Positions 2,042-26,000 of a stretch of 51,014 nucleotides of DNA are shown in pieces (position 1 is the stretch's first letter; the number at the start of each line of letters is the position of its first letter). Both the position numbers and the translations under genes were made by a program. The stretch covers positions 11,941,660 to 11,992,673 of the forward strand of contig NC_057755.1 of NCBI RefSeq assembly GCF_004010195.1. The letters are read 5' to 3'. The notes below the pieces were generated by a model. That model had not been told where the DNA came from. It saw nothing but the letters and a program-made list of their open reading frames with translations, and ran no database searches. Source of the stretch: Chiloscyllium plagiosum. Lineage: Eukaryota.

Positions 2042-5000
2042 GTGAGGGCAGCGGCGGCCTCCACGATACACCCGGTCTCCTGTGTAGGCCTAAGCCTCGG
2101 ACTTGGAGTAGATTCTGTCCGGGAGAACCGCAGGCTCAGGGCCCTTTTTGTGTTCGGAAGCTGCTGGGGATGGAGGGACTGGGTGGGGTGGGGAAGTGAA
2201 GAGTGCGAACCGACTGGGCTCAGGGTCATCTTTCTGCTTCTCACCTCCTGTTGTTTAATTATAGAAAGAGAAGAGGAAACATTCCGAGAAAAGCGAGCAC
2301 AAAAAGGCCAAGAACCGGGAGAATGGCGAGTTCGACGAAGGAGAAAGTGAACTTAAGCCTCCGAAAGCAAAGAAGCACAAGAGCGAGGATCATGAGGACA
2401 GGGATGCCAGTAGGAGCCGAAAGTCTGAGAAAAATGGGGTGGTGAGAGAATCCAAGCAGGAAACGGCCCCGCGCTCCAGCGATGATTCCAGTCAGTATTC
2501 CGAGGGGGAGATCGAGGAGGTGAGAATACCCACCTTCAGGAGTTAGCTCCACATTGGCCGGTTTACTGGCGCTGAGCATTCAGGATGGTTAACGGCCGCC
2601 TGCTCATTCGCCATCGTGACATATTTCACATCGGCAACGGTTCCGAGTGAACGGGCATCGTTTCCCCTGGTCCTGGAGGAACGCTTCTTATTTTTCCAGT
2701 GAACCATGAACATGTGACGTATTTCTGGGAAAAAGGGGGAGAGACGTTTCTCGTCCCCCTGGGGAAATGCCTCCCTCGCGTTCCCAAGTAAAAGGGGAAA
2801 GCTTACCCACGTTCCTCGGTGAGGGCGGGGAATTTCCGCGTAATCCTGGGGAAGTGGGGCCTTCCCGGGGTAATTGGGGGCTTCCTCGCCTTCCCGGATA
2901 AAGGGGTGAGCCGTTTCCACATTCCAGGGGAAGGGTGGGGGCGTCTTTTCAGCGTGCCTGGTGTAAAGGGCATTGGTGACCGGAGTTTCAAAAGTTGAAT
3001 ACGAAATACATTGAAAACCCTGATGAAGGCGGAGCTCCATGATAATTGGCACGATGGGTCAAGAGTTTGGATGAGGTGCTATTGGTAGGGATGTGGTGAC
3101 ATCTCGTAGAATACATTCAGCAGAACGCAGAAGCCTGTGGGCTCTCAGTTATTGAAGATGGCACTTATAAGCAACAGACTTTGATTTCATTAACGTTTCG
3201 CCTCTATTTTTAAAAAAAACACTAGCCAAAGCTTTACTTGTCACAATATCCCAGCTGGAATCTTTGCTTTCACTCTACTCGTGCTAAGACCAGTCTCCAT
3301 TTAACAGCCTTGTTTATTTTCATTTAAAGATTGGGTTCTAATAGTTTCGGGTAGATTGTGAGTTTTAGATTAGCAAATGTATCTCAACTGTGGGAGGTTT
3401 TATTTTGTATCCAGAATAACAAGTCAGAAAGTACAGTTTTTCAGTGCAAAATTTGTTTGAACTTGCCATCCACCTTCCTGATTGTTACTTCACAACCGGG
3501 TGCCATCTGATGACTTCATCTCATACCTTTTTAAGTTGCTGTCAGTCTTTATCCATGATGTGGAGGTGCCAGTTTTTTTTTGTTGGATTCTTTTTGCTAC
3601 AAATTCTATATCTTATGATCCTGCTGCACAGCTACCTGACGAAGAAGCAGTGCTCCAAAAGCTACTGCTTCCAAATAAACCTGTTGAACTATAATCTGGT
3701 GTTGTGTGATTTTTAATCTCATCCATGTTGTGGAAGTGCTGGTTTTGAAATGGGTTGGACGAGGTCAAAAATCGCACAACACTAGGTTATGGTCCAACAG
3801 GTTTGTGTGAAAACACAAGCCTTCAGAGCTCACTTCTTCAAGAGCTTCATCTCTGGTCTGAATCCTTCATTCTGGTGAGAGGGATTTCTTTGCATTCAAG
3901 AATGTCACTGTTCAGTGAATTGGCGTCATTTCAATTCTTGGGGTGTCTTGTAGTAGCAAAGATTCTTCTTGGGGAAGTGCAGGGAAAGAGGTCTCTCACA
4001 GTAGATTCAATGCAGAGGACAGGCTAAAGATGAAGAGGAACTCTCAGGACATGGTGGGAGTTGAGGGATTTGAAATGAAACAAACTGCCCTGACCAAACC
4101 AGGGTACTCGGTCACCAATGTCCAGAATATCTTTTAACCTGCAATGGTGAAGTACTTGAAATAGTTTTGATGTTTTATAGGAACTGACTCCAGAACAGAA
4201 AGAAGGAGCCTTTTCAAACTTCAGGATTTCTCAAGAAACGATTGAACTACTAAAGGGTGTGTGAGATTTTTTTTCCTTTGGAGATCGCGACACATCCCCA
4301 TGGTGGTCTTTTGTAAGAGAGTTTCAGATTCAATGTTTTCCAACTGATGGGGGTATTTATATAGTCAACTGTTCAGTCTTTGTTTTTCAATAGATTTTTA
4401 CTGCCTGGAGTCCCTGTTCTTGATAGTTTCAGAGATGTTATTCAAAAGGCACGAGGATGTGAAATTTGGCCTTCTCTCTGTCCCATATTTGTGTGCTCAC
4501 TGAAGTTGGGTTTTTCACTGTCCACTATTTGACAGTGTCTCTGAAGCTTATTCATCAGCTGGGATTTGGTATCTGACCCCAATGTTGCTATTGCCAGATT
4601 TCTTTTTAATTGAGAACTCATGGGGTCCCTTGGTGATTTCTTTCTCTGCTGTATGGTCAACAGCACTTTCAAATGGCGGATGAAGCCTCTTGGTCAGGTT
4701 CAATTTGTTCTTTTTCCAGGTATTACTTTTTATTCACTAGTCTGATAATTTATTCCCAATTCCACTGATTCAGAGTTTTGGAACGAGTTGGTAGTACAGT
4801 ACGTAGGAACCTCGATTATCTGGCATTCGATTATCCGGCAAGATCGCAAGGCCTTGATGCTCGGCTAAACTATGTTATCTGTCATTCACTTATCCGGAAT
4901 TCACTTAACCAAACGAAATACTGCTTGTCAATGTCCTTCGGATAATCGAGGTTCCTTGGTAATTAGCTTTTATCAGTGCAGGATATCTATTGTGCCCAGA

Positions 5001-8000
5001 TCTTCTGAAGTTTCATGTGCATGCCTGGCGGTGACGGTTATAAAGAATTGCCCGTGCAGCAAGAACAGGGATTCCAGGCAGTAAAAATCTATTGAAAAAC
5101 AAAGACTGAACAGTTGACTATATAAATACCCCCATCAGCATGGGGTAAATGGCACTAGCAATGTTGGGATTTTACCTTTAAGCATTTCATGGGCACGTGC
5201 AGTTTTGACTGATCTGTTTGCATGCTTTGCTTAGGAAACACTGTTAAAATCAAGTAATGAATGATGCAAGGGTGGTGTTATAGTCTTGATGATTGCGAGA
5301 ATATAGTTTCAGGGCATTGTGCGTGTGTAATAGAGGGATTCAGCTGAGGCAATATTGCTGGAGTTGGGTATTTTAATTTTCTAGGAGAAAGTGAGGACTG
5401 CAGTTGCTGGAGTTCAGAGCTGAAAATGTGTTGCTGGAAAAGTGCAGCAGGTCAGGCAGCATCCAAGGAGCAGGAGAATCGGTGTTTCGGGCATGAGCCC
5501 TTCTTCAGGAAGAAGGGCTCATGCCCAAAATGTCGATTCTCCTGCTCCTTGGATGCTGCCTGACGTGCTGAGCTTTTCCAGCAACACATTTTCAGCTACT
5601 TTAATTTTCTATCGACTTGGAGAGGCCAAATAGCTCAAATAAAATCCTAGAGCTTTACAGCACAGAGGAGCCCATTGGCCAAAAGTGCCTGCATAAACAT
5701 TTTGATAGAAGTGCCATTTCAATCCTATTCCCTTTCTCTTTTCCTGGAGCTCTGCAGTCTTTTTCCACTTGGTGTAAGTGTCCATTCCCATTTAAAAGTC
5801 TCTATTTTAGCTACCTTCACCACTCTTTCAGGCAATGTATTCCAGATCATAGTTCATGAACATAATATTGTTAGACAAGATATAATGGTAATTTTACTGA
5901 ATGAGTTATCCAGAACTTCAGGCTGACTTTTTTTTTGTACCTTTTAATTTGTCTGAAGCTTCTTACTCAGGGTATTGCAAGAAGCTGTTTCTTCAGATGA
6001 AGGACTGCACAGCAACAGCAGTATAATGTGGAAACTGTTAGGGCTGTTTCGTGTGGTGGTAGTGTCCCTACCTTTGATGACAAGAGGCCCTGCTTGAAGT
6101 TCTACCGCTGCTGAGGTGTAATACCATCTCTGAACAGGCTAATTAGAAAATGCCTGTAACCTGGAAATTTGAGCTGGGCCAGTGAGTGTTGATGTCAAGG
6201 AGCACTTCTTTTCATATACGGGATCATGGAAAACAGAACCCGCGCTGCCCAGATGACTGAGGTTAAATTAACAACTTCAGAGCTTGAGGATGGCAGATGT
6301 CTATTAGGTAAGGGTGTAAAGGACATGGGGAAAAAGGCAAATAAAGACCATCAGAACCCAGATCTCCATTGATCTAATAAAGTGACCTCCTCCAGATATA
6401 AGGGGCTCAGGTTGTAAGTTAGCTCTCTGAGCTGGTAGGTTTGTTTTCAAACGTTTTGTCACCATGCTAAGTAACATCAGTGAGTCTCAGTGTAGCTGGT
6501 GTTCTGTTCCGATATCTATTTACCATATACTCTCAAGTAATAGTTGAATTTTTTTGACTACTTTTTTTAAGGTTGGATTTATGGGGTCAACTGTTACATG
6601 GATACTACTTTTGAGGGGCTGAAATTCATGTTCATCAAAATTCATGCTGTATCATTAGTAGAGTCTAAAGAAAGAAAACAAATTATGATAATTTTGAAAA
6701 CCCAGAGTGGAGCAAAGCAGCAAGCAAACTGGAAGACCAGGAGCAGAGCGGAACAACCAGCAGACTGGAAAGCTGGAGTGGGACGTGAAGGCCGGCACAC
6801 TGACTCAAACATTGATTCCTTTTCTGTGAAGAACTAGGGTCAACTTTTACGTGAAATATGAAAAATTCCAGGTTATTGGCAAAAGTAGGGTGTCAACTTT
6901 TATGAGATTGACTATTATCCATGTGTTTTCAGTTTGGGACTTGACCTGTTAAGGTGGGTGCCAAGGGGTTAGATAGTCTGGTAGTCATGGTAGCCCACAA
7001 ATCTACCAACACGCTGAAACAACTACTGATAAACCTAAAGGACCCTGTACCAACAACCAGCAAAACTAATGTCTTTTACGAAATACCCTGCAAGGACTTT
7101 AACAAACTACATCCGACAGACAGGCAGAAAACTAGCCATCAGGTTACATGAACACCAGCTAGCCACCAAAATGCAGGTCCCACCATCACTAGCATCCTTA
7201 CATACAGATGAAGGAGGACACCACTTCAGCTAGGACAACATATCCGTCCTAGGACAGGCTAAACATGCACGGGAATTCCTAGAGGCCTGCCATTCAAACT
7301 GGAACTCCATCAATAAATATGTCGATTTTTGACTCCATTCACCAACCTCTGAGGAAAAAAAAAACAGAAATGATATCACCCACCTTCAAAGACCAAGACA
7401 CATAAAGAGAAAACGGGACAGAACACCAGTGCTTCGCCGGAGGCTCACTGATGATGTTGGGGATGTGTAACCTAGCCTGGCGATGAAATATCTTGAGAAC
7501 AAACCTATTAGCTCAGCGAGCAAACGTACAACTTGAACCTCAACCTGAGCTGCACAGCTTCTCAAAAACCGCATTCAAGTTTCTGAATGAATTCCTGTTA
7601 CTAATGTATCTTCCCACCAGTGACATAATATTGTAAACAGTCAACTTTTTACATTGCCGGGGCTCTCTGACTTATAAGCATCTGACTTATGAATACTTAC
7701 AAATGTGATCCTTTATAGGGGTGTAATTTTAAAGTTACACAATATAAACATTTTGTATGCTTATAAAAGCTACCTTATATTGTATTGTGTTCTGACTTGT
7801 GTACAGATTGGCATGTGAACAGCCTGTTTGCAACCTGGGACTGCCTGTATCCAAAATTTCTTTGGTAAGCAACAGCCAGACTATAAAATAGATTTGCATG
7901 AGATATAACGTTAGGCTCAGGGTGAGGAAGAGTTAAGCGAGATTACTTCCTGCAGTGCAGGCGGTTTCCAAGCTAATTGGTTTTTGCACTATATGAGCAC

Positions 8001-11000
8001 TTGCAACCAGTATTTTTGGGAGAGGTGGGTCAGACTTTGTTGTGGAAGGCTAAGCCTGCTTTAAGCACAATGGAATCCCTTGTATCCTTTGTTTTGCCAA
8101 TTTTGAAATGTTTTGAATTTGTTGCATTCTTCTTGTTCACTCTGCAGAACGGGGAGTGACCTACTTGTTTCCAATACAAGCACGGACATTCAACTACATC
8201 TATGATGGGGATGACTGTGTGGCTCAGGCCAGGACTGGCACTGGCAAAACTTTCTCCTTTGCAATTCCTTTGGTGGAAAAGCTGCAGTCAGAGGCTGTTG
8301 ACCGGAGGAGAAATCGTCCTCCCAAGGTAAAGTAATCTGCAGTCAGTTGCTGGGGTGTAAGATTGAAAGGCAGCATTAGTTCCTCTGTGCACTGTACTGC
8401 TGTGCATGTGGTGAACACTGGGGTATAAACTCACTGGGCTCAGGTTTGGAAAGTGATGCTCAGCGTGAGGAATGTTGGCGCTATTCAGAGCCTCACTCAG
8501 CAGGTCACGCATCTGGGCTGAGAATTTCTTGCACGCCTTTTCAGTGAAGGGCAGTATGGTTTGATCTCCAGCACCCCCACCCCTGTTAAGTGTATTTTGT
8601 AACGATTTCTAGTGTTCACATCAACAAAGGTAAAAATCTAAGTGGTCTCCTGTGACTACAAAGGGATTTTTATCAAATGGATCAATGGGCTGAAAAATGG
8701 CAGATGGAGTTCAATAGACAATAGGCCATTCTGCCCTTCGAGCCAGAACCACCATTCATTATGATCATGGCTAATCGTCCTCAATCAGTATCCAGTTCCT
8801 GCCTTATCCCCATAACCCTTGATTCCACTATCCTTAAGGGCTCTATCCAACTCTTTCTTGAAAGTATCCAGACACCTGACCTCCACAGCCTTCTGGGGCA
8901 GAGCATTCCATACACCCACCACTCTCTGCATGAAGAAGTTTCTCCTCAACTCTGTTCTAAGTGGCCTACCCCTTATTTTTAAACTGTGTCCTCTGGTTCG
9001 GGACTCGCCCATCAGCAGAAAATGCTTCCTGTCTCCAGAGTGTCCAATCCTTTAATAATCTTATACATCTCAATCAGATCCCCTTCTAAACTCAAGCGTA
9101 TACAAGCCCAGCATGTATCAATCTGGATAAATGTGAGGTACTGCATTATGGTACAACAAAGAGGGGCTGGACTTGCACAATTAATGTTGGGGCCTTGGGT
9201 AGTAGAACAGAGGGACTGAGGCATTTAGGTACATTATTCTTTGAAGTTTGTGTCACAGATAAACAGGGTGGTTAAAAAGGCATTTAACATACTTGCCTTC
9301 ATTGCTAAATCGTTTGAGTATAGGAATTGAGAAGTCATGTTGAGATTGTGCAGGACATTGAGGCCTCTTCTGGAACACTCTGTCCAGTTCTGGTCACCCA
9401 ATTATAAGAAGGATATCGTTTAGCTAAAAAGGGTTCAGAAGAGATTTATCAAAATGTCAATTATGCAAGGTTTGATCATAAAGATAGGCTGGGACAATTT
9501 TTTCACTGGAGTTTAGAAGATTGATGATCTTATAGAAGTTTATAAAAACATGAGGATGTAGATAAGGTTAATGGTTGGTGTCTTTTCCCTCTGGTGGGGA
9601 TTTCAAGATTGGGGGCATATTTTTAAGGTGAGAGATTTTAAAAAATAAGCGAGAGGCATGTTTTTTGCACAGAGGGTGGTTTACATGTGGAATGAACTTC
9701 CTGAAGAAGTAGTGAATACAGGTACAGTTACAATATTTAAAATACATTTGGTTAAGTACATTAATACAAAAGTTTTGGAGGGATGTGGGCCAAATGCAGG
9801 TGGAATTAAATTAGTTTGGGATTATGTTCAGCATGGACTGGTTGGACTAAAGGGTCTGTTTTTATGCTGCATGACTCTGACTGTAAGGGCTCTTCAACTG
9901 GAGTGGCTGACTATACCACCATCACTGAGTGTGCTGATGTTTGAAGATTGACTACCTAGTCTGAAGTTTGAGGGTCTGCCAGTGGCTGTGGAATGCATCC
10001 CTCCTTAATCCCCTGCCAAATTTACCGACAGATTCTTAATGACTGGCTGGGATGCCCAATCTTGTATTATCAGACTGTGGTAGAGTTGCCACTTCAAATT
10101 GACTTATCAATGGGGATGGTGCACGAAGTTCTTCCTAACTAGTGAGTTGATCTTGCAAATTCATGATCTCTCTTACTGGTACAAATCATTCACTACAGTT
10201 TTTTAATTCTTTCTCCAATTTGTTGATTCCCACTTTTTGTTTGGGGTAGGGATGGGGTTCCTGAGTAGTCAGTTGAGATCCCTGTGGGGACTCTTCAGGT
10301 ATTGAAGTGGGTATTGAAGGCACTTTTTTGTTTCACTGCCGTTAGTTTTCACATAACACTTGGATACAGAACTGACTCAAAGGTAGAAAACAGAAGGTAG
10401 TGGTGGAGAGTTGGTTTTCAGACTGGAGGTCTGTGACCAGTGGTGTGCCACAAGAATTTAAAAGGGACCTGAGGGGCAACTTTTTCATGCAGGGGGTGGT
10501 GCGTGTATGGAACGAACTGCCAGAGGAAATGGTCAACGCTGGTACAATTATAATATTTAAAAGTCATCTGGATGGGTCTGTGAATCAGAAAAGTTTAGAT
10601 GGGACTATATCAATTTAGGAGAAAGTGAGGTCTGCAGATGCTGGAGATCAAAGTTGAAACTTTATTGCTGGAACAGCACAGCAGGTCAGGCAGCATCCAG
10701 GGAACAGGAGATTCGACGTTTCGGGCACAGGCCCTTCTTCAGGAAAGAAGAAGGGCCTGTGCCCGAAACGTCGAATCTCCTGTTCCCTGGATGCTGCCTG
10801 ACCTGCTGTGCTGTTCCAGCAATAAAGTTTCAACTATATCAATTTAGGATACCTGGTCAGCATGGACGAGTCAGATCGAAGAGTCTGTTTCTGTGCTGTA
10901 TAACTCTATTACTTTCTTTCCTAGGTCCTTGTGCTCACTCCAACAAGGGAACTGGCAATCCAAGTCGCGAAAGACTTCAAGGATGTAACCAAGAAGCTCA

Positions 11001-14000
11001 GCGTCTCTTGTTTTTATGGTGGAACAGCATACGCTGGGCAAAGTGAGTGTTTGGTATTCAAAGTATTGCTTCCGTTGTTTAACAATTGGTAAGATACATC
11101 TTGCTCTCCTGTGAGCTGTGTTGGTGTGCAGATTGTTAACATTGATGCTGGTGGGCAAATTTTCCATTTAAACCCTTCTGCAAAGCCAACCAGTGAAGGA
11201 ATAGAGCTGCAACAACTATAAGCTATTCTTGTGTTGTGCATTTAACAGGCTTTTTCATAAGAACATTCTCAAACAATTTAAAATCTATAAGCATGAAGGG
11301 CATTTTGACATAAGCAATAACTTCCAGGAAGGAAGTCTTTGGGAATTTTTTAAAGGAGAAAAGAGAGACAGAGAGGAACAAGAGAAAACCATTTAGCTTC
11401 TTGAGCCTGTCATATCATTCAGTGAGATCATGGCTGATCTGCTGTCATTATTTTTGTTTTTTTGCCTTATTTGCACCAGTTGCTATTTATAAGGTAGTGT
11501 CCCAAACTTCTGCAACTGTTTCTGTGCAAAAGGATTTCCTAATTTCACTTCGAGTTTGAGCGCTGATTTCTACTTTTGGCTCTAGAGTCCCTAAACTGCT
11601 AGAATATTTCAGGTCTGAAACTCAAAACTAAACACAGCAAGTCCAAGTGTGGTCTAACCAGGTCTTTGTATACATGAAGCACAATTTCTGTATCTTTTTA
11701 AATGTAAATGCTAGTAATACGTTCCACCCCTAAGTCACTTTCAACACCACTGTTTCTGGCATTTTTCCATTTCAAAACGCTCCCATTTTATTCTTTTAGT
11801 CCAAAGGTCTATTTTCAGACATTTCAATCCATTTACTACAGTTTTGTCCACTCCCTTAAGGGGCCAATGTTTCACAAAATGTTATGATTCTCTCTGCAAT
11901 GCTGTCTCTTTATATCATTGGCAAATTTGGATAGGATCTTCTATCCTGTCATTCAACCATTGCAAGTTTGATGGTCCCAATGGCCTTTAGCACTGTAGGT
12001 TTTCTGTGACCTAGGTAATAGGTGAATAATTGAAACCAAAAACACTGAAGGGAAGCTTGCCAGTTAGTGTCTCTGTCACTCACCCATTTTCCTGACCAGG
12101 CCATCTTCAATTTTGTTAGCTTCACCTTGAAGTCAGTCTCTTATGAGGGACTTCAGAAACTTCATCCTTAGTTGTTAGAGATATCCAACTTTTCACATCT
12201 ATCTGTGTTAATATATCCCTCCTGCAACACCAGTCATCTTTTATATGGAATTTTATCAAATGCTGTCTGGAAATCCAAATATACTATATGGGCAAGATGA
12301 ACTTGTAGAGGGCATGAGGGGAGATTGGAGAGAAACAAGAGAAAACTCTAAAGTTGAATGTGGCAGTGCAGTAGGGAAAAGATGCCAAGAAGTGTATTTC
12401 CATTCCACAATTATCCTGAAAATTGAATTGTTTTAAGATGGTTACAAGAATCAGTAATGCGGTCCAGCTGTTTGTGGTAGCCTGTTGCTGAGCTAGTTGT
12501 TCACTATAATGTGACCAAGTGGAAGAATGGATTGTGAGTTGGCTTCGTAAAAGAAAGCAGAGAGGGAGTAAAGGCCAGTGTTCAGAGTGACAGAAGATGG
12601 GAAGTGGTGTTTCACAGGGATCAGTGCTGAGATCACTGCTGTTCATAAATTCCAAATGGATGATATTTTGAAATTTGTGGATGACACCAAATCGTGGGGT
12701 AGGCAAGGAAGAATGGCCAACACTGAGATGGACTGCAAAATGTAGCAGAACACAAATGAGCTTGTCAATAAGCAAATAATTCGGATGTGAAATTTAATGT
12801 GTGCGGTTACACATTTTGGTAGGAGGAATAGGGAGGTCACTTACTACTTGAAAGTTACCAGTCTAAGTGGGATAGAGAAACCGAGGTAAAAATACATTAA
12901 TCTCTAAATAGTTTACCACATAGGATAACGAGGCAGAACTCATGCTGGGCTTTATTTCTAGAGGGGTATAATTTAAAAATAATCAAGTGATACTAAACCT
13001 GTAATGAAGATTACATGCTTACACTGTATTTTGGATTACACTGCACTGAGAACACTGTGTGCACTTCTGAGCACATTATTATTGAAAAGGTTATAGAGAA
13101 GGGGATGCAGAGATGATTTACAAAAATGATGCCCAAAATGTGTGGGTTTACACACAGGATTTTCAGACCAGGCCTCTTGCACATCTTTGGATTGTGAGAG
13201 GAAACAAAGGTTCGGGATGACCTAAGAGTGGTCTTTAAAATTCTGGAAAGTTTGGGTCGACATGACACAGAGAGAACGGTTATTCTTGTGGGAAAGAGCA
13301 TTGCTAGAGGCCCATCATAAGATAGCCATCAAGCAATTCAATTTGGAAACTCTGAAGAAACCTCTCTATCCAGGGATTGGTGAGAATGTGGAACTTACCA
13401 ACATGGAATTTTGATGGCATGAATGCTATCAATGTATTTAAACGGAAGTTAAATGAGCGCATCTAGCTGAGGTATGTAAGTTGCTAAATAGGACTGACAA
13501 GGTAGATGTAGAGCAGATGTTTTATCCTGTGTGGCAATCTAGAACAAGAGGTTTCAGGTTAAATAAGATGAGAAGAAGTCACTTCTCTCAAAGGGTCATC
13601 AATCTGTGGAATTCGTTGTCCTAGAATGTGACACTAGGGACACTCAGTAAATTTGGGGAGGAGAAACTTTTTTTAAATTTAGTGATGGGTTGAAGGGTTA
13701 CGGAGAGTGGGCAGGAAAGTGGAGTTGAGGCCGAGATGAGATCAGCCTTAATCATTAAATGGCAGAGCAGGATTGAGGGCTGAATTACCTATTCCTGTTC
13801 CTGTTCCTATTTCCTATGTATGTGAAAGAAATAGATGGTCATAATGGTAGAGTTATGTGAAAAATTAAGGGAAGAAACTTGAATGGAGTATCAGCATCAA
13901 CATGGATTGATGAGCTAGATGGCCTGTTACTGTGGTTTTTTAGTTTTTGTAAAATTTGGATGCCTTGAACTTAAAAGGAGTAAAGCTGAGGATTATATGG

Positions 14001-17000
14001 GATAACAGGTGAGACCAAGGAATTGTTTTATTGGTGACTAAGGTTTCAAGAGGAAAAATGAGGAGATAGTCATACACGAAACAGATCCTTTGGTCTAACT
14101 TGGCTGACCAGCCCTATTTGCCAGCATTTGGCCCATTTCACTCCAAACCCTTCCTATTTAAATACTCATCCAGATATCTTTTAAATGTTATAATTGTACC
14201 CAATTCTATCACTTCCTGTTGCAGCTCATTCCCCTCTGTGAAAAAGGTACCCCTTTGATCTTTCTTTATATCTTTCCCCTCTTAACTAGACCTATTCTCT
14301 CTAGTTTTGGACTCCCCCACCCCAGGAAAAAAGCCTTGCCTATTCACCCTATCCATGGCCCTCATGATATTATGAACCTCTAAGGCCACCCTCAGCCTTC
14401 AACTTTCCAGGAAAAATAGCCCCAGCCGGTTCAGCATCTTTCTGTGTCTCAAACCCGCCACCCCCCAGTTCCATCCTTGTTAATCTCTTGTGCATCTTCT
14501 CAAGTTTAACAATGTAATCCCTATAGAAGGACGATCATATGATTGATTAAGCAAGCCAGTTATTGCAAAACTCTTAAGTGGAAGACCTGTGGCTAGAATG
14601 CTGCAATGTTCTAAGTGTAAATGAATTGGGAGAGAGCTTTCTCCAAGCCAAATAGTGAAGGAAGTGGGATTGCGTCTGGTATGGAGAAGAGCTGGAAAAG
14701 AGCAAGATGGTGGCCCAAAAATGTGGGGAAGTTTACATGGAGAGAGAGATTGTATGTGCGGAGGAGGAGGATGAAGTCAAGTGAGAGAAGGGAATGAATT
14801 GAGATGCAGGTTCTAATCACTGTGATTACCTGTTTGCTGCAGAGCCTGAGGGAGGAAAACACTGACGATGTCTTGGTGATGCATGTTTCTGTACACTGGG
14901 AAAGGTCGGTCAAAAACAAGAATTCTGAATGAGAGTGGAGAGGGCTGCAAAAGAAAGGGAGGATCCTGAGAGGTAGAGAGAGAAATGAAATTGTGGCTTG
15001 ATGTTCAGGATCAAACCACTACCACAATGGTCTTCAGTGGCATACAGGATAACCATAATTTAGTGTGGAGCAGCTATTTCACCTCCAACCCCCTTGGGCA
15101 TGTGCCGTCACAACCAACTGACTTGCCAAGGGCAAGGGTGAATAGGCAATGAGAACTGACCCGCTGACAGAACCCACTGGGAGCAGTGGGAGCGCTGAGT
15201 TAATGGAGAGACAACTACTGCGGTTCAGCCCAAGTAGGCACGCTAGAAGGACAATTCATTTGGACAATTCATCAAATACATGGCAAGTGACAGTACAGCA
15301 CCTCTTTAAACCTCTGCTGTATGACTCTGATGAAAATTCTACTAGCTGTGCTAACATACCAACTGTAGCATGGGATGTATCCAAAGTAAAACATCCTGAA
15401 CACTGTCCCATCAAACATCCAGGGGCAGACACAGCACATGTTAGATATCAAGTTTCTCCCAGTCACCAAAACACAGTACTATGCTACTGGCCTGACCTAT
15501 TTATAGTAGTAACATTGATTCCTCAAAACAAGCAGGCAGGAGTTAGTGTCTCAAAAGCCAGGACTGGAAATTACTTCTGCCCTGGTAGAGACTGGCCATT
15601 TTGACTGTAATGGCTTATTCATTTTTTCATGGGATGTTGGTATCACTGGTGAGGCCAGTATTATTTACTGTCCCTAATTGCTCTTGAGAAGATAGTGAAG
15701 AGCAGCCACCTTGAATCACGGCACTCCATCTGGTGCAGGTAAACCCAGGTTGCTATTTGGAAGTCACTTTATGTAACTGAAAACCTCTCAACTTTCTTAG
15801 TCCATGTGAAATAATGGGTACTGTTTCATGATTAACCTGACTGTGAGAGGAATGTTTCTGGCCTAGTTATGGATGGGATGTGCAAACTGAGTTAAGGGTT
15901 GAATTATCTTTTAGTGGACAGCATTCGGAATGGCATTGATATTTTGGTGGGGACGCCTGGAAGGATCAGGGACCATCTACAGAACATGAAAATCGACCTG
16001 TCTAAACTGAAGCATGTGGTCCTGGATGAAGTGGACCAAATGTTGGACATGGGCTTTGCTGAACAGGTGGAAGACATTCTGAAAGTTGCATACAAAAAAG
16101 GTGAGTCTTTCTGTGTTTTGGCCTCTGATGATTGTGTTCATGTTTGCTTTTGAAGAGGTATGCTATCCTTAAACAACCTGAGCCTGAACCATTGATGAGA
16201 GAGAAAATGTTATGTAGCCAACTGTTATGGATCAGGCCAGACCCCCTCAAAACATTTCAAATAGCTCAGACCCTCACTTTGCCCATTGTTTTAGGCAGGT
16301 GTACAGTGGTTATTGCAGCTGTACAACCATTCTGCTTTAAACAAAACAATTTATTTGCCAGATTATCAAATGAAACACAAACAAAAGAGAACAGAATACA
16401 GAGTAACGTAGCTGAAAATGTGTCACTGGAAAAGCGCAGCAGGTCAGGCAGCATCCAAGGAGCAGGAGAATCGACGTTTCGGGCATGAGCCCTTCTTCAG
16501 GAACGGCTCTGAAGAAGGGCTAATGCCCGAAACGTCGATTCTCCTGCTCCTTAGATGCTGCCTGACCTGCTGCGCTTCTCCAGCAACAACATTTTCAGCT
16601 CTGATCTCCAGCATCTGCAGTCCTCACTTTCTCCTAGAGTAATGTAACCTATCCAACAACCCAACAGACTCTCCCAACTTTTAATGATGCTGATCCAAAT
16701 ATTTGCAACAATCCCCACAAACACCGCTTAGTAAAAAGGTAAAATCAAACACGGGGTCTTACAGGACAGTGATGTGGAGATGCTGGTGTTGGACAAATTT
16801 AAAAATCGCATGACACGTAATAGTCCAACAGGTTTATTTGGTAGTACAAGCTTTCGAAGCACTGCTCCTTTGTCAAGTAGCTAATGGAGTAGGATCATAG
16901 GACGCAGAATTTATCGCAAAAGATCAAAGTGTCATACGCTGATGCGATATATTGAACAAACTTAGATTGCTGTTAAGTCTTTCATTTTTTAGAATGGGTT

Positions 17001-20000
17001 GCAGGAGAGAGAGAGATGGCAGAGGGACTCAGTGAGGAACACTTTATTTCATGTAGCTGTTTCTTGGACCAGCAGCCTCAAACTAAACTTACTGCTAGTT
17101 TTCAGTGTAACAACCATACTGCTTAAACTAAACTAGAGAAAAGCTGAGCGGGGAGAACTGGCCATTTCCCTTGCAAGTGTTTTTAAAACAAAAACATGAA
17201 AGCATTCTCAAGTAGATCAACTCCATACATTTCGGAATCTGTATCTTTACGACCTCCTGAAAAAGAACCAAGGACAACCTAACCTCCTCAAAGGTGCAGC
17301 AGCATCATCACATAATCTCCTTTGGGAATGTAGACCAATAAATTACATTTATAGAGCATCTTCCACAGTATTAAGATTGGAGGGTTTTTAACTTAATTGA
17401 TTATTGGATGTGAATGTCTTTGACCATGCTAACACTTATGTCCACCCTTAATCACTCTGCTGATGGTGAGTGGCATCTTGAAATGCTTCAGCCTGCTATA
17501 CTGTTACCAAGGCAGTTCAAGGATTTTGATGCAGCAGCAGTGAAGGAACTACAATATTGACACACTGTGTGACTTAGGGGAAAAGTTGTATGGTGCTCCC
17601 ATACAGCTGCTACCTTTGTCCGTCTTGATGGTAGATATCCCAGATTGGAAGTTACTGCCTTCGTGCTACAAAATGGAGTGAGGAGACATTGGAAAGTTGA
17701 GAGGCTGGGGTTAAAGAGGTAAGGAGGGACCTGCTAGTTGGATGAATACAGGCAGCAAAATTTTGGATTAACTGAAATTTGTGGAGGGTGCAGATTGGAG
17801 CCTGGTCAGAAGAGCTTTCCATCAGTTGAGACTAGAAGGCAGGAAGTGCCCTGGATGAGGAAGGGGAAACATTATGCTGAATGTAACTGGTTTTCCAAGC
17901 ATCCTTCGAAATCTATGTTTGTCATTGTGGGGAAAGTTGTAGATATGCTGCTTGTCAGGAATTTTATTGGTTTGTGCGCGCACCTTCCTTACGAAACCTA
18001 ATGCAAACTTAACTGTCAATTCATTTGATGTATTTTTGAGGTCCCTGTGCAGCCAGTTTAGTTGATTTGAGCAGTCTGCCTAATAATCCAAAGCCTGTCC
18101 AGTTATATCAAGCAAGAAAATCCTTTCCAGTAGGATATCAGGTCTGAGTCCAGCAATTTGTAATCCATCTATAATTTTGACATTTTTTAATTGCTTTTTA
18201 TACCAGTGACTTTATTGATTAATATAATTTCTACTTTTGTCCTCCAATAAGATTCCAAAGACAATCCTCAAACACTCCTCTTCTCTGCAACTTGCCCTGC
18301 CTGGGTTTATCAAGTCGCAAAGAAATACATGAGAGCACAGTGCAAACAGGTTGATCTCATTGGAAAACGGACTCAGAGAGCTGCTACAACTGTTGAGGTG
18401 GGTTTGAGCATGGGAATGTTAGATTTCAGTTCCGAGATCGGTGATCGATTTGAATATATAACTTTTCAGTAGTTTGCAGAGCTATATCTTTGTCTCTCAG
18501 TTAAGAAGGTAGTATATGTAAACTCCAGCTAAACTTGGAGTGTTATAAGATTATTTAAGGTAATTACTGTTCTAAGCATAAGGCTAGTTATTGAGTGAGA
18601 GACAGAGTGAATATAACTAGAGAAGTACTGAAAATAACTTCAGAGGGAAGGAGACCCCAGCTCAGTAAGGCAAGAGGCCTGAGGATCTGGATTTTCAGGT
18701 TTACTCTATTGTTGCAATGATAAAATCTGTTTCATCTCTTAGAAGGAATGTTGAGATCAGTTGTAAATGGAACATTAAACACATAATAACATGTTTTTAC
18801 CTACATAATAAAATGCAACAAAGATAAAAGCCAAAACTAGACTTGACAGTCCTTTCCCCTCTGATCTCTAGTACGGTATCAGATACCCATTACTTAGACT
18901 GACCCAGTGTTTACAATAGTGTTGTCAGAGGATTATTTAGCTGATTTCAATCAGGTTACTATGATAAAACACATCCAAATCCAATGTGCTTCAGTTTTGT
19001 GATACATGTGCTTGATCTCTATTTTTATATCATCCAGTACATAATCTTAGTGACACAGTTCAGCCTGTGCTCTGCAGGAAGTGTGCTGCCTTGAATGGGC
19101 ATGCCCTACTAGTTGATCTAAGATGTATTTTAAGATACTAGATCAGACCACCCCAATTTGTTTTGGCCCCAAATTCAACCTGGAAATTTTGTTACCTTCC
19201 TTTTGTACCAGTAATATTTATTTGATTAAAGCGGGCACAATTTGAAATTCCAGTTATTAAGAGAATAAGCCACAAGATTCCAAGCAAATAAATACTTACT
19301 GTACTCTAGTTAAAGCAATCAGTCACGCCTATCTATCAAACTGTACAGTAAATGTAAGATACAACTATGGCAAAACTCCAACCATTTCTCGGCAAACCGT
19401 CCAGGCACCAGGAAATCTCAAAACAAAATTTGTCTTCCTCTTGAAGAATTTCAGCTCCTGTTTCACAGAGTTAATCTGATCCCCAGTAGTCAGGAGTTCT
19501 GCTGAAACAAAGTTGGATAGGTACCCAACCAAAGGATACACTATTCCACATTTCTGTTTCGTCTTCATCCAAATCAAGATTTTTGGTAGACACTACCAGT
19601 TGAGCTGACTTTTCAAGGCATATCCTGTATCGGCTAGGCAGTGCACGCTGTCGTATAAACACTGGCTCAATTCCAGATTCTCAGTTCTGCCAACAACTGC
19701 GTCGTGGTAGCACAAAGCTAACAATTGCATCTGGGGAACCCCAGCCCTCTCTGCACCACAGAACTTGAAGCAGCTACATGGAACCAACTCACTTCTCTGT
19801 CTGCTTCTACAGGCTGTCATTACCTCTCACCTATGCCTAGCAGGTTTCAGGCTCCCTTGACCTGAAGCAAATCAAATGAATCAGAATTATTCCATGCAAA
19901 AGGAGACCATTTGGCTCACCATGCCTGCACCATCAACATTGTGTGCATTAGATGTTACAATTTCTAGTCACTGTTGTGCAATGACTAGGTATTTACCCCT

Positions 20001-23000
20001 AAAGCATCAGTAAAGTACAAAATTTTATTATGATAGTATGAAAGTTTCAGGGTAGGTGTTAATAGGTTTGTTTATAAACCATGTGCACGTAAGACATTTC
20101 GGAGCAAGAGAAGGTCAGTGAGGCCGTTGAGCCTGCTCCACTACTTAATGAGATCATCGATAATCTTCTACCATGACTCACCATTTTGCCGTAACTTCAT
20201 ATTCCTTGGTGATTGTTAATATGTAGGAACCTATCAGTCTCATTTATTTTACCCTTTATAATATGATATTGATTCCTTTATCACTGGTTTCAGTATCCCT
20301 CAAGTTCTTGGGTTCAGATTGAGTTGCATAGAACCTGCAGCTAAAAGCCTTTCTTTTCTCGGCCAGCATTTGGCCATAGCATGTCACTGGACACAGCGAG
20401 CGGCAGTCATTGGTGATGTAATCCAGGTTTACAGTGGCAGTCATGGGCGGACTATTATCTTCTGTGAAACAAAGAAGGAAGTAAATGAGCTGGTGATGAA
20501 CAACTCAATAAAACAGGTATGGCGTTCTCCCAGTGCTCCTGCCCTGAGTAACACCGTGACACAACAGATTCCTCCCCACTAATAGTGTAACCCACTACCA
20601 TGACTGAAAGGTCCCCATCAATATGGTGTCCCAATGTTGGACAGTGACTTGACCCCACCAGTACTTTAAGCAGTGTGTACAGTGACAGACCTGTTCTCAT
20701 TAATACTGTACTCGAGTTTTCCACAGTGATAGTCAAGCCACATTTGGGCTTAACAAGGCACCCCATTGTTATACTGGAACAGGCCTGATCCCATTAGTAG
20801 TTACCCCTAATGTTATGCAGTGACAAACCTGGTCCCACCAGCACTGTACCTCAGTGTTATTGACAGACCAGTCCCCACTAGTACTGTGTCCTTGTGTTAT
20901 ATAGTGACAGACCTGACCCCATCAATACTGACTCCCAGTGTTATGCAATGACAGATCTGTCCTCAACTAGTACTGTACCCCTTAAACAGTGATAGATGAA
21001 TCCCTGTCAATAGTATCCCCAATCTTTTTATACGGGAATAGATCTACTAATATTATTTGCTTGGAGACTGCACAGTTCATTTTGTACAGAATCATAGAAT
21101 TCCACAATATGGAAGCAGGTCATTTGGCACATTAAGTCCACACCAACCCTCCAAAGAGCAGCCCACCCAGTGCAAAACAAGTGTTCCACACCCACAGGCT
21201 AGTTATTATACTAACCTGTGCAAATGCTATCTTTTGTTGGATTGCTGTACATCATCAGCTCATGATCCAAGATTTTGTTTATTTTGTTCTGCAGGATGCT
21301 CAGTGTCTTCATGGGGACATTCCACAGAAGCAGAGAGAGATCACCTTGAAGGGTTTCCGGGATGGCTCTTTTGAGGTCCTGGTTGCAACTGATGTGGCTG
21401 CTCGTGGCTTGGACATTCCAGAGGTAGACCTAGTAATACAGGGTTGCCCACCAAAGGTAAGTTAGCGTTACCATTCAGAGAGATGTCTACAGACCAGTCC
21501 CGTTGAAATCTGGTTGTGAATTCTCTGTAATTTATTTAAGTGCTGTTTAAATAGTGTCAATGTTTCAAACTCAGTATGTCTCCTCTTCCAAATAATGTTC
21601 CGAAGAAGTCATTGCACTTGAAACTTTAACTCTTTCTGTCCCTGCTAGACTAGCTGAGTTGCAATGGTATTTTTATTTTTAATTTCCAGCATCTGCAGTG
21701 TTTTCGTCAAAATGATTAGACATAAACTTGATGTCTAATATTTGAGCTAGTTTCTGATGTATTCCACACCCTGTAATGAGCTCAATAATGAGGGAGTTTT
21801 CCGGTATTCCATCTGCTCTGCATTCCCCAGAAAGGAGTGTGTTATGTTAATGTAACTTAGCGATTTGAGTTGATATGCTTTTCTTTACAGTAAAATTCTC
21901 AGATTTTCTAATATGATCAATCATTAATTTAGGATGTGGATTCCTACATTCACCGTTCTGGTCGAACGGGCAGAGCTGGGCGCACAGGGATTTGCATCTG
22001 TTTTTATCAGAAAATGGAGGAGGGCCATCTGAGATTTTTGGAACACAAAGCTGTAAGTGCATTTCAATGTTATGCGGATTGCTATTGAAAAGTGATGATA
22101 TCGATGAAACTGTTGTATTGAATATGCAGCTGTCATAGCCAGCAGTGGACAGAAGCAATGATTGATATTATTATAGCAGTTCAGTTAGAAGATTACAACA
22201 TGGTGGTTCAGTGGTTAGCACTGCTACCTCACAGAGACAGGGACCCAAGTTCAATTCCACCCTTGTGTGATTGTGTGGAGTTTGCACATTCCTCCCATGT
22301 CAACGTTTCTTCTGGGTGCTCTGGTTTCCTCCAACAATCCAAAGATGTGCATTGGTGGATTGACCATGCTAAATTGCCCATAGTGTCCAGGGATGTCTGG
22401 GTTAGGTAGATTAGCCATTGGAAGGTACAGAGTTGAATAGGGTGTGGGGATGTCTTCTGGGCGGTTAGTATGGACTTGATGGGCCAAATGGCCTGCTTCC
22501 AGGGATTCTGTGTACAAAACTAGAGAATGTTAGGAGACAAGAAGAAATCTTCTTGGATAAATAATTCATTCCTTAACAAAGAAGAGGTATTCTTGTCCCC
22601 TCTTGGAATTTGCAAAAGTTCCAACATCTTCTATTTCTGTTTAAATCTGAAATTCTGTAGATGTAGAGTTCTGACGCTTGTGTGCTTTGCCACTCAAGGT
22701 TAGTCATTGTCCATAGCTACATCCGCTGTGATGTGCAATGCACCTGTGTGCTTGTTCTGTTTTATCGGCTTAGCCATATGTCATTGTTCATTGACACCAA
22801 TCTGTTAAACTGTAAAGGGCAATCACAAACCTATTTTGTCCCATTCTCCGCAAAGCCCAAATTGTACTTTCCACGAGGGCAGTTCAGTCAGCTATGATTA
22901 TGTGGATCGGAGGCCAGACCGGGTAAAGACAGCAGATTTCCTTCTCTAAAGGAAAATGACAGTGATGAATTAAATGGGTTTTATGGCAATTGACGATGGT

Positions 23001-26000
23001 TACCATGATCTCTGTCAGGAAAGCATATTTTTAAATTAATTTTTTTATTTCAAATTTTGCTATTTGTCAAGGTGTGCATGTGAACCTGTCCCCAGACCAA
23101 AAACCTGGGCCTCTAGATTTCCAGTTGAGTGACACTTCACTACGCCACTACCTCCCTGATAAATTGTGTGCTGGTTTTGATCACTCTAAGCTTAGGGTAT
23201 TGGGTAAGTGAGGCACCTCTTCCCTGATAATGACTAGCTACATCTGCATTAACTAAGCATCAAACACTATGCCTGCCTTATTATTGAACTCAGCTGAAAA
23301 TGTGTTGCTGGAAAAGCGCAGCAGGTCAGGCAGCATCCAGGGAACAGGAGAATCAAAGTTTCGGGCATAAGCCCTTCTTCCTGAAGAAGGGCTTATGCCC
23401 GAAACATAGATTCTCCTGTTCCCTGAATGCTGCCTGACCTGCGCTTTTCCAGCAACACATTTTCAGATCTGATCTCCAGCATCTGCAGACCTCACTTTCT
23501 CCTTATTATTGAACTCAGCCTGTTTACAACAGACCTACTTGGCATGAACAAGTGAACCGATATTTTGTTTTACTTGGCTGTTGAGCAGGCTCTTGAAATG
23601 CAGATATTTTCCCACAACACCTGCCCACTCTTTCTACTTTGTCAAATGTGGGGCAACTACCTCGATATTTTTCAATATTTACAGCAGATGCATTTATCGT
23701 TTTCCCATTTATTGAAAGTAAACAAAGTGAGTAATAACTTCTGGCAAAAATTAAAATAAATCAGAAGGGAAACTGTAGCGTTTGAGATTTGTTGCTTTTT
23801 TATCCCCCCACAAAAACCTATTGTAATTTGTCTTTAAAGGGGTTGACATTCAAACGTGTTGGAGTTCCAACAGCCGCAGACGTTGTTGAAGCTTCCTGCA
23901 AGGACGCTATCCGGTACAGTGTGATTTCAGATTAACATCTGCTGAGAGAGGATTGTATTCAGTCAGAGTGGATTGGGGATGCGATCTTTTAAACAGAGGG
24001 AACCTATGAGCAATTTGACGAATAGTAATAGTCCCTAATAATGGGAAGGTGTCAGGGATAGAGCGTAGCACTGGTGGAGGTGTGACGGAGGTCAAAGAGA
24101 TGTTATTTAGAGATTGAGTGGCGCAAGACCGGGGCACAGCTGGCCTATTCCAGTTTGATGCAGTAAATGTTCAGAGTTTGTGATCTGTGTTGGCCTTCCC
24201 TCCATTCAGGATTGAAAATAAAGCTGAGTAACCTGTAGATGTTAATGGTTAATGACTGATTTCCAAAAATGCTGATAATTTGCTGCTTTGTACAACGGGT
24301 AGATGGGATGTTGGCTGAGAGGAGATAATTCGTGAATTCCACCAACTGAACCTTGCAATGTTTGTATTTGAAAGGTCTTTGGATTCCATCCCAGCAGCAG
24401 CCATTGAGCATTTCCGTCCAGCAGCTGAAAGCCTGATTGAGCAGCGAGGAGCATTGCAAGCTTTGGCTGCTGCTTTGGCACACATCTCAGGAGCAAGGAG
24501 CATAGAGCAGCGTTCTCTCCTGAACTCTGATGCAGTAAGCACGTCTGCATTTGCATGCAGTTTCTTCCTTCCAGTGGCATGAACTCTTCCAGTGCATGGT
24601 GACTGGTTTCATTTGTGACTCAGTATTAGATTGATCATAGTCATATGCGTTGTACTAGGAATCTCACTTGGACAGTGACACCACCCCTATCCCACCCACA
24701 AGACTGAGAAAGACACACATTAACCAGCTCTCATCTCCTGTCTCTCTCCCAGATATAGCAGTGGCTGGGCAGGAATAGGATCATCTTGTACTTTAATCTG
24801 TCCATTGGTGAGAAGTTTATCAGTCCTTACTGCTTGATTCAGACGAACAGTTGGGCAGTTGGTGAGATGCTGAAAAGTTATCTTGTGCTGGGGAACGGCA
24901 GTCTGCCAACAGTCAGTACCTGACCCCTCAGTTCATTCTTCATAGTGCACTATCTTAAAGGAAGTTACAGATGGTGTATCCTGTTACTGCTCTGCACAAC
25001 TATAAATCCTGCTGGGCAGTAATGCAGTCAGGTCTGTCACCACCTCTTGTCAGGCGTATTCCACGTAATTGAACTATTCAGCCCATTGTATCTGTGCCAG
25101 TTTTTTGTTACAATCATTCTAGTGAAACCAATTTCATTGTCTTTTGATCTCCCCGGGACCCTTTCTAAAAAGCCATCTAGTTCACTAATGTCCTTTTGGG
25201 AAGGAAATAGGCTGTCCTAGCCCAATTTGGCGTATATGTGGGTCCAGACCCAGTAATGTGTGTGATTCTTAACTGTCCTCTGGAATAGCCAAGCAAAACA
25301 TTCCCACAAAAAAAAGGTCCTGTATTGCTCCAATAATTAATCCCCATGTTGTTCCCACTCCCCCTCCTGTATTCATATACACCAATCCCCTATTGAACCC
25401 ATTCCTTCCATCTCTCCCAAATAAATTCTACTGGTCCTTGCCCGTAATTCCCAGCTCCCTCTCTCCCCACAATACAAATGTCACCCAAATCACCCCACTA
25501 TTAATCCGACAGCACCCTAGTATGTTAAACCACCCACCTCCTGTCACAGTTCCAATCTACAAATTACAAGTTGTACCCCTCTTCCCATGAACCAATTGCT
25601 GTACCATGTCCAATTTTCTATTCCAATTTTGTGTAAGGGTCTGGATTGATCAGACAAGCAATCAGGTTGAGCTCTGTCTGGCCCAGCTCTTAAAGCCAAC
25701 TTGCTGTAAGATGTCACAACTTGGAAACAATCTGTACTGAAACTTCTCCCCTCATCATATTTGACCTCACAATATTAGTATTTCCATCTATTCTCCCTTG
25801 TGCACTTGTCTAACTTACCCTTTCAGCATTGATGCTCTTCTCCTCCCCGACTGTGTTGGTAGTTCTGCATTATAACTTCATTCTTAAGTCAAGGAATTTT
25901 TGAATTTAGAATTTGTTGAATGAATTTGTGACAATCAAATTTTTCTGGTTTCTAGTTTTGATCTTTCCCAAACAGTATCTTTTCCAGGCCTTCCATATTT

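Follow-up and report, generated by a model that had tools for sequence, protein, structure and literature searches.

Four palindromic elements (E1 to E4) in the introns of a shark RNA-helicase gene are, with a probability of roughly 0.8, minimal-length insertions of an endonuclease-bearing Penelope-like retrotransposon (PLE), in which the 3' end of the pseudo-LTR is joined head to head to an inverted, tail-less second copy. The retained pseudo-LTR end most likely consists of a minimal hammerhead, approximately 60 nt and a 34-nt tail. The elements are real but most likely mostly ordinary: their layout has already been described for PLEs, and occurs here at minimal length. A sequence-only reading of the window (the whole stretch of DNA analysed, 51,014 nt) had placed all four elements correctly, and they are made up as follows.

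5370..5383, unstranded: E1 TSD copy on the tail side, 14 bp, 1 mismatch to 5598-5611
5384..5417, minus strand: E1 34-nt tail
5418..5511, minus strand: E1 tail-bearing arm; core from 5508 (C3), stem III box decayed
5509..5597, plus strand: E1 inverted arm; first base is G5 of the core, G12 mutated, no tail
5598..5611, unstranded: E1 second TSD copy
10607..10617, unstranded: E2 TSD copy, 11 bp (17 bp counting end microhomologies)
10618..10651, minus strand: E2 34-nt tail
10652..10745, minus strand: E2 tail-bearing arm; intact minimal hammerhead core from 10742
After 10715, minus strand: predicted cut in the E2 tail-bearing arm; 3 bp of stem I kept
10747..10835, plus strand: E2 inverted arm; equals its partner across 89 nt, lacks C3-U4
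10836..10846, unstranded: E2 second TSD copy
16399..16409, unstranded: E3 TSD copy, 11 bp, 2 mismatches
16410..16503, minus strand: E3 inverted arm; intact core from 16500
16501..16508, unstranded: E3 unpaired centre, 8 nt, of which 3 nt match the parent's upstream TTC
16509..16600, plus strand: E3 tail-bearing arm; intact core from 16509
After 16536, plus strand: predicted cut in the E3 tail-bearing arm; 5' strand of stem I lost
16601..16634, plus strand: E3 34-nt tail
16635..16645, unstranded: E3 second TSD copy
23278..23291, unstranded: E4 TSD copy, 14 bp (19 bp counting end microhomologies)
23292..23380, minus strand: E4 inverted arm; lacks C3-U4, stem III box decayed
23378..23468, plus strand: E4 tail-bearing arm; core from 23381, stem III box decayed
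23469..23502, plus strand: E4 34-nt tail
23503..23516, unstranded: E4 second TSD copy
45375..45407, minus strand: 33-nt remnant of the same family's hammerhead, with a fourth loop II variant and neither arm nor tail (E=1e-5)

Compared over their whole length, the four copies are 82.2-89.3% identical pairwise. They measure 211-225 nt and share both outer boundaries. Each contains head-to-head inverted arms of 86-90 nt (paired segments 5418-5506/5509-5597 in E1, 10652-10740/10747-10835 in E2, 16410-16500/16509-16600 in E3 and 23292-23380/23383-23468 in E4), with no differences in 89 nt in E2. The one-sided extension previously put at about 33 nt is present on one arm of every copy, but is 34 nt long. 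The inverted arm is always tail-less and in all four copies stops exactly at the arm/tail boundary; in E1, E2 and E4 it begins at G5 of the core. The central junctions do differ between copies, as had been claimed, but the unpaired centre measures 2, 6, 8 and 2 nt in E1 to E4, not 0-8 nt. A single TSD pair brackets both arms in every copy. The anchored TSDs of E1 to E4, 14 bp (1 mismatch), 11 bp (0), 11 bp (2) and 14 bp (0), agree with the AT-rich duplications of 11-14 bp that had been proposed. Their length thus varies between 11 and 14 bp, at AT-rich sites (TSD AT content 73-93%), and an anchored repeat of this kind has a chance probability of 6e-4 per site. The base following the tail is T in all four copies, and a recount again gave TA in three.

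Much of this layout is familiar from endonuclease-bearing PLE insertions (Arkhipova et al. 2013, PMC3846280; Craig et al. 2021, PMC8557442), which share with E1 to E4 an inverted copy, a one-end tail of 30-40 bp, variable short TSDs, AT-rich targets and a junction palindrome. The latter source describes an inverted 5'-truncated copy with the 30-40-bp tail on one end (PMC8557442), and the former a 31-bp tail, TSDs of 8-10 bp and head-to-head junctions that contain palindromes (PMC3846280); a 34-bp repeat is given for Penelope of D. virilis (PMC2377424). Unlike these insertions, E1 to E4 have no ORF between their ends, and both copies are truncated within approximately 8 nt of the hammerhead's 5' edge. 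Their TSDs are 11-14 bp, as against 8-10 bp in the rotifer examples.

The Poseidon element of Anolis carolinensis, PAc (Frangieh et al. 2024, PMC11167929), is similar by description in that the tail lies between two fixed points approximately 90-145 nt downstream of the hammerhead, the target is AT-rich and the ribozyme is uncut in the inserted DNA. For PAc, reverse transcription starts 111-118 nt into the ORF, AT-rich DNA is nicked on both strands, and cleavage is not needed (PMC11167929). However, the PAc ORF begins at stem II, where E1 to E4 have no ATG. Non-LTR retrozymes (bioRxiv 10.64898/2026.07.22.740005), reported in one chondrichthyan genome, are likewise short, non-coding, PLE-derived and equipped with a type I hammerhead, but their units are arrayed head to tail in tandem and each has a working core, whereas E1 to E4 are solitary pairs, joined head to head and furnished with a tail and TSD. 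A tandem retrozyme was rejected as a candidate on this arrangement.

In L1 twin priming, an inversion with junction microhomology also arises inside one TSD, as in E1 to E4, and the two L1 arms cover different parts of one RNA. In E1 to E4, by contrast, the two arms represent one and the same stretch, which requires either two copies of the template or a fold-back. Literature searches listed no description of this shark family.

The central motif was scored by core descriptors against 200 dinucleotide shuffles of the window. The descriptor for core plus stem II matches five times, always within E1 to E4 (shuffles: mean 0.13, maximum 2), and the full core with palindromic ACGU three times, against 0.04 in shuffles. 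The minimal core with stem II is kept in 5/8 arms and the CGTC box is intact in 4/8. The whole core is present only in the E2 tail arm and both E3 arms (3/8), and E1 and E4 therefore lack an intact core. The claim of hammerhead cores at every centre thus stands as regards a motif far above chance, but not as an intact core in E1 or E4. Stem II is invariant in all eight arms and loop II takes four forms; stem I of E1, E3 and E4 has a U-U mismatch at 1.3 relative to the upstream consensus. In its hammerhead fold the dimer has a less favourable energy than the MFE dimer (-12.5 vs -17.9 and -14.1 vs -24.1 kcal/mol). The Rfam hammerhead scan that had been suggested returned no hammerhead at the gathering threshold; at E<=10 there were 29 sub-threshold matches, mostly miRNA hairpins, the best of them to miRNA models and none to a hammerhead.

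Identification of the motif as a minimal type I hammerhead of PLE type is nonetheless supported and bears out the original assignment: the extra nucleotide, G10.1-C11.1, palindromic 15.2-16.2 and short stem I all fit, as do an upstream stem I partner and the variation at N7 in the reads. The corresponding PLE motifs (Cervera and de la Pena 2014, PMC4209133) have CUGANGA, an extra nucleotide between 9 and 10.1, G10.1-C11.1, palindromic 15.2-16.2 without loop 3, and a short stem I, in common with E1 to E4. Stem II differs, with 4 bp here and 7-8 bp in the Schistosoma motifs. The source also notes opposite-strand pairs of such hammerheads 100-700 bp apart, and the parts of it consulted name no shark motif (PMC4209133).

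Sequencing reads and contigs, numbered here by E3 coordinates, show that the family is large and dispersed, with a 3' end that is fixed and a 5' extent that varies. They come from DNA contig runs, including X2, and an RNA run, X21, from a single-cell library. Thousands of contigs in two DNA runs end sharply at the tail; in X2, 1003, 1238 and 923 contigs diverge at 16634-16636, where the sequence passes into flanks that are AT-rich and unrelated (agreement 0.33-0.34). In the part of the tables listed, loose ends fall at 16634-16637 and before 16509, in keeping with a constant 3' end and varying 5' truncation. Where loose ends precede C3, they terminate in CCTCATTC in each of the three runs that gave data (584 reads, 1210 and 1113 contigs); this upstream sequence supplies the ATTC that pairs with GAAT of E2. 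Other contigs contain tail tandems (16633>16601, 10 contigs), an inverted tail joined at C3 (16509>16599) or joints from the tail back to the arm, i.e. partial tandems. Fold-back joints near 16501-16515 were absent among the 15 of 170 joints listed, as were empty alleles among the rows listed.

The sequence-only reading had proposed a separate non-autonomous "retro-MITE" family. In such a model, master palindromes would be transcribed and copied whole by PLE proteins, and the arms kept alike by gene conversion. The common outer boundaries and narrow length range would suit this, as would the shared G5 start of three inverted arms and the identical E1 and E4 junction, which could be that of a copied palindrome; non-autonomous PLE derivatives also exist (PMC8557442; bioRxiv 10.64898/2026.07.22.740005). 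It is nevertheless distinctly unlikely. More than 1000 contigs per DNA run have non-inverted sequence upstream of the core, and since contigs also end at the tail, the palindromes are a subset of a large 5'-truncated family. Given these copies, the tail and partial tandems, and the inverted-copy-plus-tail layout already published (PMC3846280; PMC8557442), a separate family is not supported. A 90-bp hairpin would, moreover, be a poor template, with no signal for a precise 5' end at its base.

Junction type also fails to follow sequence type. By sequence, E1 and E3 form one type while E2 and E4 share three sites of another; by junction, E1 and E4 are identical and E1 and E3 differ. Arms agree within a copy at diagnostic sites and match best within their own copy in E2 and E4 (in E2, 0 differences inside and 11-15 to others). 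This disagreement between sequence and junction types (n=4) favours an inversion that arises at each insertion, in line with the earlier suggestion, and a 3-nt TTC/GAA template microhomology accounts for the common E1/E4 junction. Microhomology at the eight outer junctions sums to 13 nt, against 2.6 expected (P=7e-4); with the boundary shifted inward by one it is 9 nt (P=0.006). The flanking TA is probably template continuation or priming-site microhomology; a mariner-type TA target was rejected.

It is very unlikely that the RNA is processed, and the centre of the element set, by self-cleavage of a hammerhead dimer. The motif's enrichment speaks for it, as does its variation in reads: among the 10 arm differences listed, with a further 214 rows beyond this listing, the only core position is N7, the free one (A>T in 270/775 RNA reads). 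One X2 joint (1 of 12 listed of 113) also runs from the tail end to 16537, the first base past the predicted cut. However, the axis lies 27-32 nt upstream of the predicted cut with the core retained, and a cleavage-defined axis was rejected for this reason. Five of the eight arms lack a whole core, the hairpin (-153 to -199 kcal/mol) buries it, and cleavage is dispensable for PAc insertion in vitro (PMC11167929). Sharp read starts were absent from X21, a weak test in a single-cell library. The description "ribozyme-processed" is thus unsupported: the axis is off the cut, each arm has all or almost all of the core, and whichever strand is transcribed, the complement is made first and buries the core.

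A DNA-transposon MITE with long TIRs and a chance or captured hammerhead-like centre would explain the size, the near-perfect inverted arms and the TA beside the tail in three copies. DNA-transposon MITEs have symmetric TIR termini and a fixed, superfamily-specific TSD length. The TSDs of 11 and 14 bp are not fixed, nor of the 2, 8 or 9 bp that had been associated with DNA transposons, and this variability and the one-sided tail already largely refute the model; single-arm, tandem-tail and partial-tandem copies and the motif enrichment also count against it. There is next to no chance that single-arm copies were inserted first and became palindromes later through local fold-back duplication of the DNA: the best within-copy arm matches in E2 and E4 would fit, but in all four copies both arms lie within a single TSD pair and the inverted arm reaches just to the arm/tail boundary.

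The host gene has DEAD, Helicase_C and GUCT exons on the plus strand, K/E-rich N-terminal frames at 1943-2543 and nucleolar RNA helicase 2 as its best PDB match. All four elements are intronic in this DDX21/DDX50-type gene; the earlier placement in DDX21 introns holds to the level of this gene type, which covers DDX21 and its paralogue DDX50. The tail end resembles a splice acceptor but was rejected as one. The window also contains a second family, which combines the same core with a different stem II and the palindrome AGCU. Pfam searches of the 146 ORFs of at least 75 aa in the window gave three RVT_1 fragments, presumably CR1-like (FADD motif), and no GIY-YIG match.

Mobilisation by Penelope RT/GIY-YIG had been proposed. 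PLE-like mobilisation is supported indirectly, but no link to an RT/GIY-YIG ORF was found. The 41-aa frame of the E2 arm matched no longer protein, which is a weak test. The family pattern gave no matches in metagenomes, viral sequences (0 and 0 in two scans) or prokaryote genomes, collections with little or no such DNA. A shorter pattern found 120 metagenome loci, of which 28 pass nhmmer at E<=0.01 on the pattern itself and none extends into the family. Six metagenome loci of one assembly share a different repeat.

How PLEs make their inverted ends and tails is stated as open in PMC8557442 and PMC11167929. For E1 to E4 as PLE insertions, the PLE protein would nick both strands of AT-rich DNA 11-14 nt apart. 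The first nick would prime cDNA at the outer end of the tail and the second at its inner boundary, which may be the pair of start sites reported for the anole PAc element; each priming would be aided by 0-3 nt of target/template match. Both cDNAs would halt within a few nucleotides of the hammerhead's 5' edge, where template TTC and GAA could let their 3' ends anneal (E1, E4) or the ends could be joined with filler (E2, E3). Alternatively, a single cDNA might snap back on TTC/GAA and be resolved at the tail boundary, with the same product. The ribozyme would be an inherited passenger that made no axis cut and could not fold inside the palindrome. A more active role is doubtful, although it may be that the hammerhead serves as a structural coupling and stop signal rather than as a cutter: two template copies, paired through ACGU in a dimeric RNP, would be reverse-transcribed from both nicks at the two start sites, and the cDNAs would halt and be joined at the hammerhead's 5' edge. 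If so, this would explain why minimal hammerheads are conserved despite dispensable cleavage, and the thousands of stumps would preserve naturally formed traces of the unresolved second-end step in PLE integration.

Repeat pipelines could mistake this family, a probable and abundant PLE stump, for a MITE or a microRNA hairpin. Dense long intronic hairpins of this kind hint at a possible source of dsRNA and A-to-I editing. As a dataset, thousands of minimal two-ended insertions make it possible to catalogue the two priming sites along with the central join.

The four palindromic elements E1–E4 that the sequence-only reading described lie where it placed them, within a gene of DDX21/DDX50 type on the + strand (exons for DEAD, Helicase_C and GUCT domains; top PDB match, nucleolar RNA helicase 2) whose N-terminal frames sit upstream of E1. 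Their full-length identity is 82–89%, and each is an inverted pair of arms of 86–90 nt.

E1, 5384-5597: tail arm antisense to the gene; target site duplication (TSD) 14 bp, 1 mismatch; unpaired centre 2 nt
E2, 10618-10835: tail arm antisense; TSD 11 bp, 0 mismatches; unpaired centre 6 nt
E3, 16410-16634: tail arm sense; TSD 11 bp, 2 mismatches; unpaired centre 8 nt
E4, 23292-23502: tail arm sense; TSD 14 bp, 0 mismatches; unpaired centre 2 nt

One arm alone bears an extension, as proposed, although this tail measures 34 nt and not about 33. The claimed AT-rich TSDs of 11–14 bp were recovered (73–93% AT, read from the flanks with family boundaries held fixed); 6e-4 of random sites have an anchored repeat as good. 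The central spacer does vary between copies, with lengths of 2, 6 or 8 nt rather than 0–8 nt. E2 (10618-10846), a hairpin perfect over 89 bp, looks the youngest of the copies; a helicase exon frame starts near 10925, ~80 nt downstream of its end, where E2 might bear on splicing.

A descriptor of CUGANGA, stem II and GAAA finds five sites in the window, every one inside E1–E4, while 200 shuffles give 0.13; extended by stem III and the cleavage triplet, it matches three times, versus 0.04 in shuffles. All have an extra nucleotide after core position A9, G10.1–C11.1 and a loopless palindromic ACGU, features in common with the minimal hammerheads of Penelope-like elements (PLEs) as listed in PMC4209133. 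Stem II does not vary across the eight arms, loop II comes in four forms, and E1 and E4 have a decayed stem III CpG. Rfam models do not score the motif. In an RNA run from a single-cell library (X21) and two DNA runs (X2, X11), all aligned to 16501-16960 in and around E3, loose ends before C3 finish in CCTCATTC, whose ATTC makes a 4-bp stem I with GAAT of E2 and 3/4 pairs with GATT of E1, E3 and E4. N7 is the sole core position among the 10 arm differences listed from these runs (214 further rows fall outside that list), being A>T in 270/775 X21 reads. PMC4209133 places an intron end beside the hammerhead in D. virilis Penelope; at 16601-16637 the tail end and following TAG look, by sequence, like a pyrimidine tract and splice acceptor.

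The sequence-only reading also had these elements processed by the ribozyme, which is not supported: the predicted cut lies 27–32 nt downstream of the axis and each palindrome keeps the core, so cleavage did not create the centre. Because the antisense arm comes first in transcription from either strand, and the predicted hairpins are strong (-171, -199, -169 and -153 kcal/mol for E1–E4), the ribozyme should not form within a palindrome transcript. For isolated arms, too, a dimer other than the hammerhead one has the lowest predicted energy. No sharp read starts occur in X21, whose single-cell library makes this a weak test.

The inverted arm stops at the arm/tail boundary in all four copies. 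Matches between target and element at the outer junctions, both ends counted, total 13 nt versus 2.6 expected (P=7e-4), or 9 nt with the boundary shifted one base (P=0.006), as expected if ends were target-primed on both sides. For the anole element (Poseidon of Anolis carolinensis, PAc), PMC11167929 reports that two reverse transcriptase (RT) start sites bound the tail, that AT-rich DNA is nicked on both strands, that the protein is predicted to dimerise and that ribozyme cleavage is dispensable. On these grounds we favour a model in which cDNA would be primed from both target nicks, one at each of two RT start sites, and the two cDNAs would be joined at the 5' edge of the hammerhead. Snap-back of one cDNA gives the same product, and a similar self-priming has been proposed (PMC3846280). 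Two points count against the favoured reading: target homology is absent at the RT starts described for the anole element (PMC11167929), and a fold-back joint at the E3 centre is absent from the 15 of 170 joints listed.

The arms agree within a copy: those of E2 are identical and differ at 11–15 sites from all other arms, and those of E4 are 4 sites and a 3-nt gap apart, with 7–10 differences from E1/E3. By sequence, E1 and E3 are one type, and E2 and E4 have three sites of another in common; the junction is identical in E1 and E4 and different between E1 and E3. TTC lies directly before C3 and GAA at G5–N7, and the E1/E4 junction is the product expected from this 3-nt overlap. The E2 junction has both E1/E4 breakpoints and one extra base; in E3 each arm retains the core, and 5 bases of the join are unexplained. 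Since junction types cut across sequence types and the overlap accounts for the E1/E4 junction, the simplest reading, and one already suggested, is that every insertion makes the join anew at a hot spot (n=4). An ancestral junction inherited by the four copies is a possible alternative. Non-LTR retrozymes are tandem arrays (bioRxiv 10.64898/2026.07.22.740005), unlike E1–E4.

Aligned to 16501-16960 were 94,913 X2 and 105,693 X11 contigs, totals that take in other repeats there, and 4,711 X21 reads; a fourth run, X22, gave none. X2 contigs depart from the reference at 16634, 16635 and 16636 (1003, 1238 and 923) into unrelated AT-rich sequence (agreement 0.33–0.34), so the insertion sites number thousands or more and share a fixed 3' end. 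From how the exits are spread, the template seems to continue as T, A, G past the tail; if so, the TA beside it would reflect template or microhomology rather than a rule of target choice. Non-inverted upstream sequence, weakening with distance, occurs on >1000 contigs in each DNA run. In the joints listed the tail is repeated in tandem (16633 back to 16601), is inverted and attached at C3 (16509 to 16599), or leads from its end back into the arm. The family behaves as a 5'-truncated PLE. Against the PLE reading, window ORFs, a protein search and metagenome, viral and prokaryote scans (collections with little or no such DNA) did not connect the family to an RT/GIY-YIG ORF, and no empty allele was seen among the aligned-run rows listed. 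A>G/T>C differences occupy 62/206 places in X21, 28/142 in X2 (P=0.03 versus X21) and 36/164 in X11 (P=0.10). The excess in X21 hints at A-to-I editing, with the runs coming from different individuals and the places not being independent.

Several other features occur in the window.

16757-16965 (-), 3592-3725 (+) and 3754-3845 (-): second minimal-hammerhead family
21601-21699 (+): old single-arm relative of the E1–E4 family (nhmmer E=4e-4)
45375-45407 (-): 33-nt hammerhead remnant of the E1–E4 family, between two opposed LINE-like fragments
4344-5138: 795-bp element, 79-bp terminal inverted repeats of 99% identity
39046-39282: assembly gap (237 nt of N) within a LINE-like RT fragment

The second family has the E1–E4 core, a different 5-bp stem II, AGCU as palindrome instead of ACGU, its own tail-like end and many copies in X21, X2 and X11; its 3592-3845 pair is convergent, tail to tail. 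The single-arm relative has a similar tail start and a decayed, different hammerhead region, and the remnant ends 2 nt past the predicted cut, which may be coincidence. The 795-bp element, with a smaller inverted-repeat piece within, is probably a young non-autonomous DNA transposon. Six sequences of one metagenome assembly (L004, L008, L011, L017, L028, L062) have a common dispersed repeat holding the searched 19-mer, and no similarity to the family beyond it.

A literature search, with repeat databases and several supplements outside its reach, found no published account of the family. Its layout is familiar: according to PMC8557442 and PMC8969392 an inverted copy with a one-sided 30–40-bp tail is typical of PLE insertions, as in E1–E4. 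Other papers describe PLE insertions with 8–10-bp TSDs and junction palindromes (PMC3846280), a 34-bp repeat in Penelope (PMC2377424) and minimal hammerhead pairs on opposite strands (PMC4209133). E1–E4 are real and most likely belong to an already known type, PLE insertions, and the family would offer a large set of natural cases for studying how PLE ends are joined.
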